Shown here: one piece after another, positions 22,171 to 47,816 of the stretch | Numbering within the stretch: the stretch's first letter is position 1 | Layout of the letters: each line of letters opens with the position of its first letter | Origin: a virus | DNA length: 64,000 nt | Direction: 5' to 3' (one strand) | Virus record (IMG/VR): IMGVR_UViG_3300005663_001084 | Location: 88,929-152,928 of that record | Made by a program: the position numbers and the translations under genes | The notes under the pieces: model-generated | Database searches by the model: none | Told to the model about the DNA's origin: nothing | What the model saw: only the letters and a program-made list of their open reading frames with translations

Positions 22171-22225
22171 ACTATATCGGGAGCCCTCCGTATTTGCAAG
22201 AGTATTTTATATGATTTTCCAATAA
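22171..22225 (-). promoter_or_regulatory. promoter-like element with AT-rich extension (class B)
   Basis: CTATATCGGGAGCCCTCCGTATTTGCAAGAGTATTTTATATGATTTTCCAATAATTATT. Confidence 0.5.
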
Positions 22226-23200
22226 TTATTCCAGGAGTTCCAGCACCCTATGGACGAACCGGGGACCCGCATTGGGACCCCGTACGAAGCCGTTGTAGAC
22301 CTGGACCAGTGGAGCCCCGGCCTTCAGGTATTGGAGCACCTCAACGGCGCTGAAGATCCCGCCGCAGCCGATTACGACCTTCTTGATATGCGCCGTCACG
22401 TAATGCACCAGCGCCACACTCAGGCCCCGGACAGCGTCTCCGCTCCGACCGCCCTTGCCGTACTTCTCATGGACCGAGGGAAGCGTGTTCGAGCAGATGA
22501 AGCCTGACAAGTTGAAGTCGTCGGCGAGGATCAGGATCTGTTCGAGGTCATCGCCTTGGATATTGGGCGACAATTTGACCAGGAGTGGTCGGCCCCTGCG
22601 ATACAGGCAGCAAGCGTTCAGGAGTTCTCTCAGTGCGCTGGGGTCCTCGAACGTCTTGCCCTCGGCCGTGTTCGGACAGCTTATGTTGAGAACCGTGTAC
22701 GCCCCAAGGCCGCCCAGGAGCCGGTAGCTCTCGCTTATGTCCTCGATGGCCGCGTCGCCCATGATGTTGGGATCGTGCGTCTTGGCGATGTTGACGCCGT
22801 AGGCCTGCGAGCGGCACATCAGCAGGCGTTCCCGGACCATCCAGGCAGGCTCGCCGTTGAGACCCATCCGGTTCATCACGTCGCGGTCGCCGACACGGAA
22901 CATCCTGGGCCGCTCATTACCTGGGCCACCCTGACAGGTCACGCTGCCCACCTCGACCCAGCCGAAGCCGTAGTCCTCGGCCACGTCCACAAGAATGCCA
23001 TTCTTATCGAAACCGGCCGCGAGGCCGATGGGGTTGTTGATCTCGGTACCGAAGAGATGGGTCTTGAAGATGTCGGGATTGTTACCTTCCGGCTCGTACA
23101 GGCCGGGGGCTAAGCGCCGCTTCAGCATGCCCCGCACAGCGATATCGTGGGCGCGCTCAGGATCGAGAAGGGTAAGAAGGAGGTGGGCCAGTCTTTCCAT
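22226..23200 (-). CDS. pyrD: dihydroorotate dehydrogenase (quinone), class 2
   Basis: LDPERAHD N-terminus; NPIGLAAGFDKNG; GFGWVEVGSVTCQGGPGNERPR (signature 1); VVIGCGGIFSAVEVLQYLKAGA (signature 2); SCPNT. Confidence 0.85.
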   Translation of the reverse strand: MERLAHLLLTLLDPERAHDIAVRGMLKRRLAPGLYEPEGNNPDIFKTHLFGTEINNPIGLAAGFDKNGILVDVAEDYGFGWVEVGSVTCQGGPGNERPRMFRVGDRDVMNRMGLNGEPAWMVRERLLMCRSQAYGVNIAKTHDPNIMGDAAIEDISESYRLLGGLGAYTVLNISCPNTAEGKTFEDPSALRELLNACCLYRRGRPLLVKLSPNIQGDDLEQILILADDFNLSGFICSNTLPSVHEKYGKGGRSGDAVRGLSVALVHYVTAHIKKVVIGCGGIFSAVEVLQYLKAGAPLVQVYNGFVRGPNAGPRFVHRVLELLE

Positions 23201-23802: not shown

Positions 23803-23830
23803 CTATATCGGATTGGGCAGGCTATTTGGT
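23803..23830 (-). promoter_or_regulatory. conserved promoter-like element
   Basis: CTATATCGGATTGGGCAGGCTATTTGG; the A13 tract follows on the plus strand. Confidence 0.55.
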
Positions 23831-24514: not shown

Positions 24515-25087
24515 TCAGTACCCGCCGCTGGCTGGCTTGACGCTCCTCGGGTCGCTGTCCACGTTGCCGTGACCGGCAGCAGTGCTGCCCTCAGCGTCCG
24601 GGATGTCGGCCGGATCTTCTCCGTGTTCGGGATCGGTGTTCGCGCCGTCGTCCGTGTAGGCCGGGGCGTGGCCAGGGGCGGTGCTGCCTGCGGGCTCGGG
24701 GATGCCCGCGATGCCCATGTCCTCCTGAACCTTGATCAGGCCGTTCTGGGCAAGCTGCATCGCCGTGGTGGTGTACTGCCCGCCCAGGTGACCGAGCAGA
24801 CCGGAGTCCACCAGTTCCTGGAAGAGGCTGACGACCTCGGCCTGCGGCATGTCGCCGGACTCGAAGGCCTTCAGCTTCTCTGGCAGACCCTTCTGGAGTT
24901 CGCCGTATCCGGTGACGGGCTGGCCGTCGACCTCGGCAGCCGACGGCCCGATGGCAGCAAGGCATGCGCCTGCGTCGCCGCCGCACCCGCACCCGCACTC
25001 GTCGAGCATCTCGTCGATGCGGACGCTCTCCTGCATAGGCTGGCTGTTCGGAACCATTCCACGGATCACGGATCTGGGATCGCTCAT
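24515..25087 (-). CDS. hypothetical protein (CGCGCGG cluster)
   Basis: 190 aa ORF. Confidence 0.4.
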   Translation of the reverse strand: MSDPRSVIRGMVPNSQPMQESVRIDEMLDECGCGCGGDAGACLAAIGPSAAEVDGQPVTGYGELQKGLPEKLKAFESGDMPQAEVVSLFQELVDSGLLGHLGGQYTTTAMQLAQNGLIKVQEDMGIAGIPEPAGSTAPGHAPAYTDDGANTDPEHGEDPADIPDAEGSTAAGHGNVDSDPRSVKPASGGY

Positions 25088-25150
25088 GGTCTGTGTCTCC
25101 CTGTTGCTGTCAGGATTCTACAGCAAGGAGGCCCCGCAAGGCAAATTGAA

Positions 25151-25576
25151 TCAGGATTTGGGTTTGGGAGGCGACTTGTCGAGGGTGAAGTGGCTGAACT
25201 CGGCGTCCTCAACGACCTGGGTACCGTCAGGGAGCGTCGTAACCGAGCCGTAGCTGACCGGATTGACCTCGGCGATGCCTTCCTCGATCAGCTTTACGAG
25301 GGGAACATCGTTTGGCCCGAAGTCCTGAATCTCCACTGTGATCTGGCCGTCGTCAAACTCGCTGCCGCTGACCAGCCCTACGGCATCAAGCAGATTCGGC
25401 GGCTCTCCCGGGGGAGGGTCCCTGTAGACCAGGAGCGTCCCGTTGCGGGCCTTCTCCCGGATCTGCTCAGCGAGCTTCTCCATCGCTCCCTGCGTGTACA
25501 CCCGACCGTTCCGGTTCGGCGTGTCCGTCTGCATCGGCAGGGTGACCTCCACCGTCTCCTGATTCCGCTTGCTCAT
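25151..25576 (-). CDS. hypothetical protein
   Basis: GGAG SD 7 nt before the ATG; overlaps the low-complexity tail of the AAA gene by 110 nt. Confidence 0.4.
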   Translation of the reverse strand: MSKRNQETVEVTLPMQTDTPNRNGRVYTQGAMEKLAEQIREKARNGTLLVYRDPPPGEPPNLLDAVGLVSGSEFDDGQITVEIQDFGPNDVPLVKLIEEGIAEVNPVSYGSVTTLPDGTQVVEDAEFSHFTLDKSPPKPKS

Positions 25577-26915
25577 CTTTGCGCTCCCAGTAAAGTTTCA
25601 GCGCCTCAGTCCCACAGCGGTCCTGAAACTGGTCGATAGTGTCCTCGTTATCCAGGCCCTTCCGGATCATGTCGTCAACAATCTCGGGGCAGTCCACCAG
25701 TATACGCTCCGCGAGCCTGCGCAGTCCAGACTCTTCGGGGTTTGGGATTTCCAGTATCCGATTGATCCGGCCGGGGCGGGAAGCGATTTCTCCGCTCTGC
25801 CTCCCGGACAAGGCCGGGTCGAGCACGTCGAGCCGGTTCGTGGTGACGATCAGGAACAGGCCGTCCACGCGCTCGACCCCGTCGATTCGGTTGAGCAGGC
25901 AGTCAAACGTGAGCGGTTGCTTCATCTGGGACTTGATGACGTTCTCGCGGCCCTCGAAGACTGTGTCGATATCTTCGAGCAGCGCCATACAAGGCGTGTC
26001 GTCGAGCATGTCGTTCCACTCTTTGCTGAACTCGGAGTTGCTCATGCTCGCCAGATCGTAGACGTAGACAGGTAGGTTGAGATCCTCCGCCACTGCACGG
26101 GCCAAAGTCGTCTTGCCGTTGCCGGGCCTGCCGTGAAGAAGCCAACCGCGTCTCCAGGGCAGGCTCCGCTCGAAATACCAGTCCCGACTCTTGTGCCAGC
26201 GCTTCGCCTCTTCCACGACGTCGACTAGAGCGCTGTGGATAATCAGACTATCAAGCGCATCCTCGTCTTCGCTAACCTTCTGAGGGCCGAAGTCATCGTG
26301 GGTCCATACCAGGGGTCGGTGTTGACGCATAGAGAGCAGGTAGCCAGCGCTGTCGTCGTCCTCTCGGCCAGCGAGAACAGGACCTTGACTCGTATCTTTA
26401 TCGACGGTGTACTGAGAACTTCCTGAGATGTAGATCACTTCGTAGCGGTTGAAGCTCTTGTCCGTGCGAAAGGAGTTGTACATCTCCGCAGCTTTGACAG
26501 CCAACTCATCCGGATCGAACGTGCCACGCAGGTAGCGCACCACGAAGCCCTTACGATTACCTTCCTCGCTATCGGAATTGCCGGATTCGCTAACCCAGAG
26601 AAAGCGCCAGCCCTTTCGGAAGATTTTGACATTGGTGGACAGTTTCTCGAAGGCGACCAGAACGCGACGCCGCTCCGGTCGGACAAATAGCTCGTCACCA
26701 AAGAATGTTCGGGACGTGTAGCGGGAGGCTGTGAACTCCCGGAACAGGTACATCTTGAATCCCTGAGTCAGCTCCCCCCGTTGAAAGGTGGTGGTCCGTA
26801 CAACGTGCTCAACGATCTGTCCGAGGAACGTCTTGATGTGCCTCCAGAAGCCGACGATCAGACCGCCGATGCCTACGCCGCCAAGGATTGCGAGTGGGTT
26901 GCTGAGGAGGTCCAT
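25467..26915 (-). CDS. BCS1-like AAA+ ATPase with N-terminal transmembrane anchor
   Basis: MDLLSNPLAILGGVGIGGLIVGFW transmembrane segment; Walker A GWLLHGRPGNGKTTLARAV; LFLIVTTN; BCS1-type layout. Confidence 0.6.
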   Translation of the reverse strand: MDLLSNPLAILGGVGIGGLIVGFWRHIKTFLGQIVEHVVRTTTFQRGELTQGFKMYLFREFTASRYTSRTFFGDELFVRPERRRVLVAFEKLSTNVKIFRKGWRFLWVSESGNSDSEEGNRKGFVVRYLRGTFDPDELAVKAAEMYNSFRTDKSFNRYEVIYISGSSQYTVDKDTSQGPVLAGREDDDSAGYLLSMRQHRPLVWTHDDFGPQKVSEDEDALDSLIIHSALVDVVEEAKRWHKSRDWYFERSLPWRRGWLLHGRPGNGKTTLARAVAEDLNLPVYVYDLASMSNSEFSKEWNDMLDDTPCMALLEDIDTVFEGRENVIKSQMKQPLTFDCLLNRIDGVERVDGLFLIVTTNRLDVLDPALSGRQSGEIASRPGRINRILEIPNPEESGLRRLAERILVDCPEIVDDMIRKGLDNEDTIDQFQDRCGTEALKLYWERKDEQAESGDGGGHPADADGHAEPERSGVHAGSDGEAR

Positions 26916-27736
26916 CAGATCTCGAAAGTCTGCCCGACCTCAACGAAGCCTGCGAACCCATTGTTCTGCGCCTTACCGTGACCCTCGAAAACTTCCGGTA
27001 CCGAGTTGTAATGATAGAGCCACATGCGCTCTTTGATCTCCGGGTCCAATGTCGCCAGATCATCGTAGTGCGCGTGCACGTTCGAGCGGAATGGTGTCGT
27101 CTCACAGTCGTGCAGGATCGTGGCTGCCTGCTTGTAGAAGTCACGAAGCTGATTCGGACAAAACTGTGTATCGCCTGTCAGAAATGTCTTCGGCAGCGCG
27201 GGGATCGTCATGGTCCCCTTCTTGTATTTCTGAATCATCAGGCCGTAGCAGTGCATGATCCGGTAGCCGGACACGACGTGTACCGTCTGGACTGGCGTGA
27301 GCAGCACGTCTTCCCATACGAACGAGTCGTTGATCTTGAGCGGCTGACAGTCGAAGAACGTGGTCAGCGTGGCCTCGCCGCCCTGGATCGTGGACAGGCC
27401 GCCCTTGAGGCTGCTGTCCCAAAGCTCGTGCATCAGACCCTCGATGCAAAACAGCTTGGGCTTTCCCAAGGTCGGGTTGAAGTACGTACACAGCGCCAGC
27501 CATTCCAGGCCACCGATATGATCCGCGTGCAGATGTGTGATGTAGACGCCGTCGATGTACGACAGGCCGGAGGGATCGTCGCTGTCACCATACTGCTCGT
27601 GCAGCATGTCCTGGGAGCGCTGGCCGCAGTCGATCAAGAGCCGCTTCCCGCTTTCGGCTTCGATGACCATGTTGGACTGGCCGAGGCCCGCCCCGGCGAA
27701 CGCAGATCCCACGCCTACGAACCGGAGTTTTGGCAT
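26915..27736 (-). CDS. metallo-beta-lactamase-fold hydrolase (RNase Z / ElaC-like)
   Basis: YITHLHADHIGG HxHxDH motif; start coupled to the AAA stop. Confidence 0.6.
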   Translation of the reverse strand: MPKLRFVGVGSAFAGAGLGQSNMVIEAESGKRLLIDCGQRSQDMLHEQYGDSDDPSGLSYIDGVYITHLHADHIGGLEWLALCTYFNPTLGKPKLFCIEGLMHELWDSSLKGGLSTIQGGEATLTTFFDCQPLKINDSFVWEDVLLTPVQTVHVVSGYRIMHCYGLMIQKYKKGTMTIPALPKTFLTGDTQFCPNQLRDFYKQAATILHDCETTPFRSNVHAHYDDLATLDPEIKERMWLYHYNSVPEVFEGHGKAQNNGFAGFVEVGQTFEI

Positions 27737-28164
27737 GTACTCTCCTTGGCGACCTCGGCCACCAGTTCATCCATCTCGATGCTCTGGAACACGCAGTCCA
27801 GACGGTCCGCCACCAAGTGGCTCACCATGGCCCGGACAAGTTCGTAGAAATTCCGGTACGGGCCGATCTCCACCACGTCCCAGTCCGGCGGAATTTCTCG
27901 GGTACCCGGCAGGTAGACGTTCCGTTCCAGCAGGTAGCTGAAGTCCACGCTACTGGAGCCCAACTCACAGTCTTCCACCTCAATCATGTGCTCGCCGCAG
28001 GAGATGACGTAGGTGTTGTCGACCTGGATGGCATCCTGGGGAACTTCCGGATCTTCGAGCGGGTCCGGGTGGTCGATGATCTCGATAGACAGAGCGGTCC
28101 CGAAGACGGACTGCATCGCAGCCGTCAAGACGTCCGTCTGATCTTCGAGACTCAAGAACTTCAT
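27715..28164 (-). CDS. acidic hypothetical protein
   Basis: 149 aa; promoter copy ends 6 nt before the ATG. Confidence 0.4.
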   Translation of the reverse strand: MKFLSLEDQTDVLTAAMQSVFGTALSIEIIDHPDPLEDPEVPQDAIQVDNTYVISCGEHMIEVEDCELGSSSVDFSYLLERNVYLPGTREIPPDWDVVEIGPYRNFYELVRAMVSHLVADRLDCVFQSIEMDELVAEVAKESTCQNSGS

Positions 28165-28170
28165 ACTTTA

Positions 28171-28196
28171 CTTATCGGGACGGGGGTGCTATTTGC
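28171..28196 (-). promoter_or_regulatory. conserved promoter-like element
   Basis: CTTATCGGGACGGGGGTGCTATTTGC; ends 6 nt from the ATG of 27715..28164. Confidence 0.5.
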
Positions 28197-29594: not shown

Positions 29595-29626
29595 CCTATA
29601 TTATCGGATTCTGAGGGCTATTTGGT
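29595..29626 (-). promoter_or_regulatory. conserved promoter-like element
   Basis: CCTATATTATCGGATTCTGAGGGCTATTTGG. Confidence 0.55.
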
Positions 29627-47111: not shown

Positions 47112-47816
47112 TCACCCACCCAGCAACTTATTCAGGTCTTCCGACTCTCCGTCCTTCTCCAGATCCGCCATGATCTTGTCCACGGGCACGCCCATGGATC
47201 GCGCAGTCGCGATGAGTCCCGGCAGATCTTTGGCATCGAGACCGAGGGCTCTAATCTTATTTTCGAGTAGAGGAGCGTATTCCGATAGGCCTTTTTGGGA
47301 AGAATGTGAAATTTTTTCTTCGGCCTTCACCATATCCGGCTGATCGCGACGCGACGCAAGCCGGTTTTCAACACCTTTGATGATGTTTTGAACAAGGTCA
47401 TTCACCATGCCGAGGGGCAGACGGCCGCTATGCGGCTGGATCAGCCGAGCCACGTCATCGCGGACATCTCGGCAGATCTGGCGGATCTGGACTGGGTCCA
47501 GGCGGAGGCTCGACATCGCCCCCATGGACCGGAGCAGCTTCTCCACCTCGCGGATGATGTACATGAGGTAATTATCGCGACTCAGGCGGCCCTGGACCAC
47601 GTGCTGCGTAACCCGGGTAATGTCGCCCTGGAACCGGCGCACCCGCGTACGGATGATGTGTCCCTGGGGATCGGTGAGTACACCGGGAGCCTGCTTCTGC
47701 TCAGCCTTGTCCTCTTCGTTGCGAGGCTTCCTGAGCAGCTTCTTGGCTTGGTAGTTGTGGAACCACTGCTTGGCCTTGGAAGCCTCCTGGCCCCAGACCG
47801 TCTTGCCTTGCGACAT
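47112..47816 (-). CDS. hypothetical protein (possible scaffold/assembly protein; purely positional)
   Basis: 234 aa ORF immediately after the portal candidate. Confidence 0.3.
   Translation of the reverse strand: MSQGKTVWGQEASKAKQWFHNYQAKKLLRKPRNEEDKAEQKQAPGVLTDPQGHIIRTRVRRFQGDITRVTQHVVQGRLSRDNYLMYIIREVEKLLRSMGAMSSLRLDPVQIRQICRDVRDDVARLIQPHSGRLPLGMVNDLVQNIIKGVENRLASRRDQPDMVKAEEKISHSSQKGLSEYAPLLENKIRALGLDAKDLPGLIATARSMGVPVDKIMADLEKDGESEDLNKLLGG

Follow-up and report, generated by a model that had tools for sequence, protein, structure and literature searches.

An uncultivated jumbo phage carries an Apyc1-family hydrolase gene beside a BCS1-like AAA+ ATPase gene in a four-gene accessory operon

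We analyzed a 64,000-nucleotide stretch of viral DNA (positions 88,929 to 152,928 of IMG/VR record IMGVR_UViG_3300005663_001084; referred to as "the window"), centring on two adjacent genes that encode a metallo-beta-lactamase (MBL)-fold hydrolase and an AAA+ ATPase. Our preferred interpretation, to which we assign a probability of roughly 0.62, is that these genes are part of an accessory operon with four members, carried by an uncultivated jumbo phage: a gene of the known anti-defence family Apyc1 lies beside a host-like BCS1-type ATPase gene, and the two are cassette neighbours. The operon runs on the minus strand and consists of an acidic open reading frame (ORF) of 149 amino acids (27715..28164), the predicted Apyc1-family phosphodiesterase of 273 amino acids (26915..27736), the BCS1-like AAA+ ATPase of 482 amino acids (25467..26915), and a degenerate T4 gp21-like ORF of 141 amino acids (25151..25576), with a promoter-like motif at its head. 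The Apyc1 anti-defence family and the BCS1-type ATPases of jumbo phages are both known already, and the locus adds a new member rather than a two-part machine; current understanding is not overturned by any of these results.

Both central ORFs are genuine, with exact and near-exact proteins in public data and hundreds of homologues at E<1e-70. Exactly the same hydrolase and ATPase proteins (LCGC14_0165050 and LCGC14_0165040) are recorded from a 224,854-bp contig of a marine sediment metagenome. An earlier, sequence-only reading of this DNA had described an ATPase with the Walker A motif GRPGNGKTT, an MBL-fold hydrolase with the motif HLHADHIGG, and an overlap between the stop and start codons of the two genes, all of which we recovered. 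It had also named the ATPase as the first gene. Because both genes lie on the minus strand, the order of transcription is the reverse, with the hydrolase gene upstream (27736..26915) and the ATPase gene downstream (26915..25467).

The membership of the 273-amino-acid protein in the Apyc1 family is firm at the level of sequence. The protein scored 85.2 bits against the Pfam model PF23023 (Anti-Pycsar_Apyc1), for which the gathering cutoff is 50, with residues 4-253 aligned to positions 5-231 of the 250-position profile, and generic Lactamase_B models scored below this. The top three sequence matches in the PDB were the Apyc1 crystal structures 7T28, 7U2S and 7U2R (E = 3e-24 to 1e-19, residues 3-253), and the next match was ELAC2/RNase Z (E = 1e-8), which covered only residues 2-93. 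In a tblastn search against phage genomes, all matches were to SPO1-like phages of Bacillus, SBSphiJ and its relatives among them, at ~32% identity over ~90% of the length. Apyc1 was discovered in SBSphiJ/SPO1-like Bacillus phages (PMC9117128). Like the enzymes of SBSphiJ, Bsp38 and Paenibacillus, which it matches over its full length at ~32-35% identity, the window protein is predicted to be an MBL-fold class II phosphodiesterase of ~250-270 amino acids, and it is encoded by a phage amid small genes of unassigned function.

We further examined the active site in an alignment of 15 sequences (A2), comprising the window protein, SBSphiJ1 Apyc1 and 13 homologues. The di-metal motif HxHxDH (H68, H70, D72 and H73, within HLHADHIGG; 27518..27535, minus strand) and E78 in GGLEW (27500-27514, minus strand) were invariant, with H64/H66/H69 and E74 as the SBSphiJ equivalents, and the later metal ligands are likewise present. 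In SBSphiJ, E74 is a catalytic glutamate supplied by the other protomer of the dimer. Two features of the protein weigh against equating it with the characterised enzymes. The position of Y112, the catalytic tyrosine that SBSphiJ Apyc1 takes from the opposing protomer, is not conserved, the window reading GGLS--TIQ where SBSphiJ1 reads GGLRYPD, and the nucleotide-pocket loop region (between LW..SLKGGL and L..FF), although present, is two residues shorter after GGL and different in sequence. Changes in the nucleotide-binding loop can leave Apyc1 homologues with weak activity or none (PMC11370490), and family membership is therefore firm, whereas activity can only be inferred. The aligned position is also not a tyrosine in the Paenibacillus Apyc1 structure 7U2S (GGLENK), indicating that this residue is not universal in the family. 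The window protein further differs from characterised Apyc1 in a variable insertion at about residues 170-185, in being encoded by a jumbo phage of high G+C content whose probable hosts, Planctomycetota, are a far-removed lineage, and in the translational coupling of its gene to that of an AAA ATPase.

As judged from its sequence, the enzyme would most likely hydrolyse host cCMP and cUMP, and probably cAMP and cGMP as well, to nucleoside 5'-monophosphates. Characterised Apyc1 is a soluble homodimer that degrades cyclic mononucleotide signals without a partner (PMC9117128), and by analogy with SBSphiJ Apyc1 the window enzyme most likely also acts alone as a soluble dimer. With the cyclic mononucleotides destroyed, Pycsar-type abortive-infection effectors would never be activated. 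The Apyc1 counter-defence family would thus reach into an uncultivated jumbo phage with Planctomycetota as its probable hosts, suggesting that immunity based on cyclic nucleotide monophosphates (cNMPs), or cNMP signalling worth subverting, exists in that phylum.

The most credible of the alternatives, which we nevertheless consider unlikely, is that the hydrolase is a general cAMP/cGMP phosphodiesterase that rewires host second-messenger signalling or nucleotide pools and is not dedicated to countering Pycsar. Over 80% of the homologues in the Apyc1 family are encoded on chromosomes and are presumed regulators of housekeeping cNMPs (PMC11370490), close homologues of the window gene lie beside nucleotide-metabolism genes (L070, L071), pyrD is found 4 kb downstream in the window, and the lack of conservation at the Y112 position points in the same direction. 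However, enzymes of the Apyc1 family whose loops are intact hydrolysed each of the four cNMPs when tested (PMC9117128, PMC11370490), and the apparent allele turnover at a fixed locus described below is typical of arms-race genes. A general phosphodiesterase would, moreover, be compatible with an anti-Pycsar role, the two not being mutually exclusive.

The second gene of the pair encodes an ATPase whose AAA module is of the BCS1 type. Its predicted layout comprises an N-terminal hydrophobic helix (residues 7-38), a beta-alpha-beta-rich middle domain (39-151), a disordered linker, pre-AAA helices and a BCS1-type AAA module (approximately 218-452). Within the AAA module, the Walker A motif GRPGNGKTT (residues 262-270; 26106..26132) and a Walker B motif of the BCS1-type form LLEDID (25965..25982), which aligns to LLEDID/LLEDVD of yeast and mouse Bcs1, were identified on the minus strand. 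In the ATPase family, for which we built a profile of 39 sequences, G262, P264, G265, G267, K268 and T269 of Walker A and E314, D315 and D317 of Walker B are invariant. With this profile, yeast Bcs1 scored 123 bits in its one AAA domain versus ~70 bits per Cdc48 domain. When residues 195-345 were searched alone, the five best PDB matches were all Bcs1 (61 bits, E = 1e-15), followed by Cdc48 (47 bits). The alignment to Bcs1 begins ~35 residues before the P-loop and includes the common signatures WY-x-R-x-P-(W/Y)-RRG-(W/Y)-LL, LLEDID and LTFxxLLNxxDG.

The N-terminal half resembles BCS1 more weakly. In a profile comparison by hhalign, the family aligned with four phage BCS1 proteins at a probability of 99.95 over columns 8-419. 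The N-domain alone gave P = 0.003, collinear over 144 columns, versus P = 0.5-0.6 for reversed controls, and its top matches in BFVD (E = 1e-5) were BCS1-type viral ATPases, encoded by jumbo phages and by giant viruses. Compared with Bcs1/BCS1L (6SH3, 6UKP, 6U1Y) and the jumbo-phage orthologues of CcrColossus (gp235), Salmonella phage Munch (gp468) and Tenacibaculum phage pT24, the window ATPase shares a single predicted N-terminal hydrophobic helix, a predicted alpha/beta middle domain of ~110 residues, one AAA domain and the signatures PWRRGWLL-G-PG-GKT, LLEDID and LTFDCLLN-IDG, and Bcs1 is its best match in the PDB by both structure and sequence. In contrast to those proteins, it carries a disordered insertion of ~45 residues between the middle and AAA domains, and its closest relatives are chromosomal genes of Planctomycetota.

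Some observations weigh against a canonical, membrane-anchored BCS1 protein. Pfam recognized only the AAA domain (residues 259-377); neither BCS1_N (PF08740) nor AAA_lid_BCS1 matched the ATPase even at E<=10, and BCS1_N did not match the family members L002, P0011 and P0034 either. The canonical jumbo-phage BCS1 proteins (CcrColossus, Domovoi, Munch and pT24) pass BCS1_N with 33-83 bits. The candidate membrane anchor, a hydrophobic segment at residues 8-24 (26844..26894, minus strand), reaches a Kyte-Doolittle maximum of 1.83 over 19 residues, but with a Hessa dG that sums to +3.8 kcal/mol this stretch, rich in glycine and alanine, is marginal as a transmembrane helix. The position of the segment is conserved in the 39-member family (Kyte-Doolittle 1.1-1.8). 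The BCS1-type transmembrane segment and N-terminal domain of the sequence-only reading therefore hold as a conserved, marginal hydrophobic helix and a BCS1-like layout, and not as a match to the BCS1_N profile. We describe the protein as having a divergent BCS1-like architecture, probably assembling into a membrane-associated ring that remodels or moves a protein substrate.

Defence ATPases of the IetA/IteA and TRIP13 types (PADLOC; NCBIfam NF042959) were also considered and rejected. They share a classical AAA core with the window protein and gave weak matches (E = 4e-10 and 1.5e-8), but the scores were far below cutoff (34 vs 510 bits) and reflect generic AAA similarity only. In addition, the N-domain differs, and there is no IetS-type protease partner. 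Across the PADLOC and NCBIfam defence models as a whole, only generic AAA and MBL similarity was found, far below the cutoffs.

To place the ATPase among its relatives, we surveyed its homologues in bacteria. Full-length relatives were numerous at 38-44% identity, and when each species was represented by one genome, 501 genomes encoded a relative. The best 80 of these 501 (L072-L151) were nearly all from Planctomycetota (Pirellulaceae, Planctomycetaceae and Gemmataceae), with a few family matches in Flavobacterium, Alcaligenaceae and "archaeal" contigs of metagenome-assembled genomes. Within 5 kb of the gene in these 80 loci, tblastn found no MBL gene, 149-amino-acid ORF, 141-amino-acid ORF or DUF7417 gene. 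Clustering of the neighbours at 73 loci revealed no conserved partner, the largest cluster covering 7 of the 73, so the neighbourhood offers no functional clue; one locus lies among housekeeping genes. The family thus appears to consist of uncharacterised bacterial BCS1-like ATPases encoded by a widespread stand-alone gene in Planctomycetota. Given this distribution, the phage copy looks host-derived, probably captured by the phage lineage from a planctomycete-type host, and the host of the phage is probably a planctomycete. A large BCS1-like family, spanning ~500 species genomes and mostly planctomycete, is delineated by these data, with an N-domain that has drifted below Pfam detection, and it may be useful for work on how BCS1-type translocases of folded proteins arose and how widely they occur.

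Although the sequence-only reading regarded BCS1-like ATPases as non-standard in phages, they have been catalogued in all major jumbo-phage groups, with a proposed role in membrane-proximal assembly (PMC7824862). A function of the window ATPase in virion assembly near the membrane, perhaps with the gp21-like protein encoded downstream and with the Apyc1 gene adjacent only incidentally, is a reading we judge quite unlikely. It agrees with the proposal made for the jumbo-phage orthologues, with the T4-type portal of this phage, and with the weak, collinear similarity of the 141-amino-acid ORF, which overlaps the 3' end of the ATPase gene by 110 nt, to the T4 prohead protease gp21. This similarity, however, is below significance in each of three independent searches (PF03420, E = 0.12, residues 14-124 against 50-165; best PDB match 5JBL, E = 0.22; phrog_207, E = 0.008), and the positions aligned to the catalytic histidine and serine of gp21 are not conserved. 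The closest relatives of the ATPase are cellular planctomycete genes without phage context, and the operon lies far from the portal region.

The remaining question concerns the relationship between the two genes. All four ORFs of the operon overlap or abut one another. At the junction of the pair, the sequence TGATG (26913..26917, minus strand) forms a one-base overlap in which the A of the TGA stop of the hydrolase gene is the A of the ATG start of the ATPase gene. Adjacency of the two genes recurs in two contigs, L001 (ATPase 77% identical) and L004 (54%); the junction in L001 is identical to that of the window, whereas in L004 6 nt separate the genes and there is no overlap. Both contigs are syntenic with the window throughout the region that begins with the small ORFs upstream and extends to pyrD, and the three therefore represent one lineage and a single evolutionary observation.

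Outside this lineage, the pair was split in every ATPase or Apyc1 context examined. No MBL gene was found near the phage ATPase homologues L002/L003, L011, L012 and L013; these contexts include three IMG/VR contigs and another phage contig, of 105 kb, in which the ATPase homologues adjoin a sliding clamp and methyltransferases. Conversely, the Apyc1 homologues in six unrelated contexts (L006-L009, L070 and L071) are closer to that of the window, at 55-72% identity, than those of L001 and L004, and none of the six is accompanied by the ATPase gene.

Comparison of the three syntenic contigs further suggests that the Apyc1 gene has been exchanged. For five genes, the closest pair is the window and L001: the 149-amino-acid ORF (window-L001 61%, window-L004 42%, L001-L004 38% identity), the ATPase (77%, 54% and 54%), the 141-amino-acid ORF (51%, 39% and 38%), the DUF7417 protein (73%, 66% and 63%) and pyrD (77%, 65% and 63%). 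For Apyc1 (window 26915..27736, L001 5037-5870, L004 1837-2724), the corresponding values are 51%, 53% and 77%, so that L001 and L004 form the closest pair and the window allele is the outlier. Because the Apyc1 identities are incongruent with those of the five flanking genes, the simplest reading of these sequences is that the allele of the window was replaced at a fixed locus relative to the sister phage. This apparent replacement would be a small example of turnover in an anti-defence cassette.

Under our preferred interpretation, the two genes are co-transcribed and, in this phage, translationally coupled, without forming an obligate two-component system. The opposite view, to which we give a low probability, is that ATPase and hydrolase are one unit: a membrane-anchored BCS1-like translocase or remodeller and the MBL protein would together make up an effector or a composite machine against host defences. 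The ATPase might bring the hydrolase to the membrane or place it there, or take apart membrane-bound cNMP-activated effectors during degradation of the signal. The one-base overlap, the single promoter-like motif common to both genes, the adjacency kept in L001 and L004 and the fact that an Apyc1-type gene still fills the slot after the apparent allele exchange all favour a unit. The overlap, and the fact that three contigs keep an Apyc1-type gene directly upstream of the ATPase gene even after apparent replacement, could reflect selection for co-expression and so count against our preferred interpretation. Set against a unit are the spacing in L004, the single lineage behind the three contigs, the more distant ATPase homologues without an MBL gene (four phage contexts and the 80 bacterial loci), the absence of the ATPase gene from six of six other Apyc1 contexts, and the solitary action of characterised Apyc1 as a soluble homodimer. 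The sequence-only reading had proposed a defence or anti-defence unit; anti-defence stands for the hydrolase gene, as a member of the Apyc1 family, and the unit gives way to a pair that stays together only in two closely syntenic relatives.

Functional coupling of the ATPase and Apyc1 is accordingly unlikely, the case for it being their adjacency within one lineage. Its most specific form, in which the whole four-gene operon is a composite counter-defence module and a membrane-anchored ATPase cooperates with the phosphodiesterase, for example by extracting or disabling membrane-embedded cNMP-activated effectors during signal degradation or by holding the enzyme at the membrane where they act, appears to us very unlikely. 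If true, an anti-Pycsar enzyme would for the first time have a partner driven by ATP, and a bacterial or phage BCS1-type ATPase would for the first time have a function assigned to it.

The least probable reading, raised by the sequence-only reading and in our view remote, is that the hydrolase is an RNase Z/BN-type nuclease processing the 3' ends of the phage's own tRNAs: the 11 tRNA genes at 60.4-64 kb, the label "ribonuclease BN" given by JGI to many homologues, the name ribonuclease Z in some Bacillus phage records, and the N-terminal hits of NCBIfam RNase Z models all fit it, and the protein has the MBL fold and an N-terminal HxHxDH region in common with RNase Z/ELAC, but the NCBIfam hits are confined to residues 3-79 and reach about one-ninth of the cutoffs (NF000801, 34.1 bits against 252; TIGR02651, 33.4 bits against 293), the first ~80-90 residues are all that align, the ELAC2 match (E = 1e-8) falls far behind the full-length Apyc1 structures (E ~1e-24), the Apyc1-specific Pfam model lies above its gathering threshold, and the "RNase Z" homologues of Bacillus phages are the Apyc1 family itself (PMC9117128). 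We therefore rejected membership in RNase Z.

Genes of nucleotide metabolism were found near Apyc1-like genes in several contigs. In the window, pyrD lies at 22226..23200 (minus strand), and it is also near the Apyc1-like gene in L001 and L004. An orotidine monophosphate decarboxylase gene and a NUDIX gene occur in L070 (1189-1851 and 3388-4128), and a His_Phos_1 phosphatase gene occurs in L071 (3204-3917). The recurrence in unrelated phage contigs may be coincidence or may indicate a link to pyrimidine nucleotides.

The operon is headed by a promoter-like motif, which surfaced from a listing of AT-rich islands. The copy CAAATAGC-N9-CCGATA (28173..28195, minus strand) lies 9 nt upstream of the 149-amino-acid ORF. 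A scan of the window for CAAATA-N10-11-CCGATA(w)(n)(w) found four copies (22175-22196, 23806-23828, 28173-28195 and 29602-29624), compared with 0 expected from 100 shuffles. Each copy is on the minus strand, within an AT-rich island between genes. No copy lies between any of the four operon genes, and a variant is kept upstream of the orthologous 149-amino-acid gene in both L001 and L004. A scan for the sigma-70 consensus found no site upstream of the 149-amino-acid ORF, and two intergenic stretches were single-copy in searches for exact or 3-mismatch repeats. The motif probably represents a phage-specific or planctomycete-type promoter class that a sigma-70 scan misses.

The small acidic ORF was placed by the sequence-only reading after the pair and behind its own promoter copy; the ORF and the motif are real, and they stand at the head of the operon, upstream of the pair. 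Its 3' end overlaps the start of the hydrolase gene by 22 nt. The product contains 30 acidic (D/E) versus 7 basic (K/R) residues, with an isoelectric point (pI) of 4.05, and matched nothing in Pfam, PHROG, NCBIfam or PADLOC. A search of 1.84 billion representative proteins yielded no more than 5 relatives, and orthologues occupy the same position in L001 and L004. The charge of the protein would fit a candidate anti-restriction protein of the DNA-mimic type.

The last gene of the operon, the 141-amino-acid ORF, had only 3 relatives in a homologue search. Its long form and the motif PNRNGRVY are kept in L001 and L004, even where the tail of the ATPase diverges, and it may encode a degenerate protein of the protease fold. 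It showed no similarity to the ORF at 47112..47816, which lies downstream of the portal. After the operon, the consensus scan located a sigma-70-like site, TTGCCT-18-TAGAAT (25115..25144, minus strand), ahead of a DUF7417 gene assigned by Pfam (24515..25087, minus strand). The 190-amino-acid product of this gene is acidic (pI 4.12), has a Cys-rich CGCGCGG stretch, and is 63-73% identical among the window, L001 and L004.

The wider window has a G+C content of ~60% throughout, and the genes around the pair run on the minus strand. It also encodes a T4-type portal, Rad50/Mre11-like proteins, large glycosyltransferases and 11 tRNAs, which together indicate a jumbo-phage genome. A megablast search of the 24-29 kb region against 50,697 phage records found no match, and the phage therefore has no close cultured relative among them. 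The tRNA block (60441-63998, minus strand) comprises three Ser, three Leu, Tyr, Ile(tat), Arg(tct), Lys and Gln genes. Adjoining it is an ORF of 925 amino acids (57561..60338, minus strand) homologous to the eukaryotic major vault protein (MVP). Pfam detected MVP_shoulder (98 bits) and Vault_3 in this protein, and every PDB match was to a major vault protein (E = 2e-18, residues 549-889 against MVP 467-814). A homologue of the vault shell next to a tRNA block is unusual for a jumbo phage.

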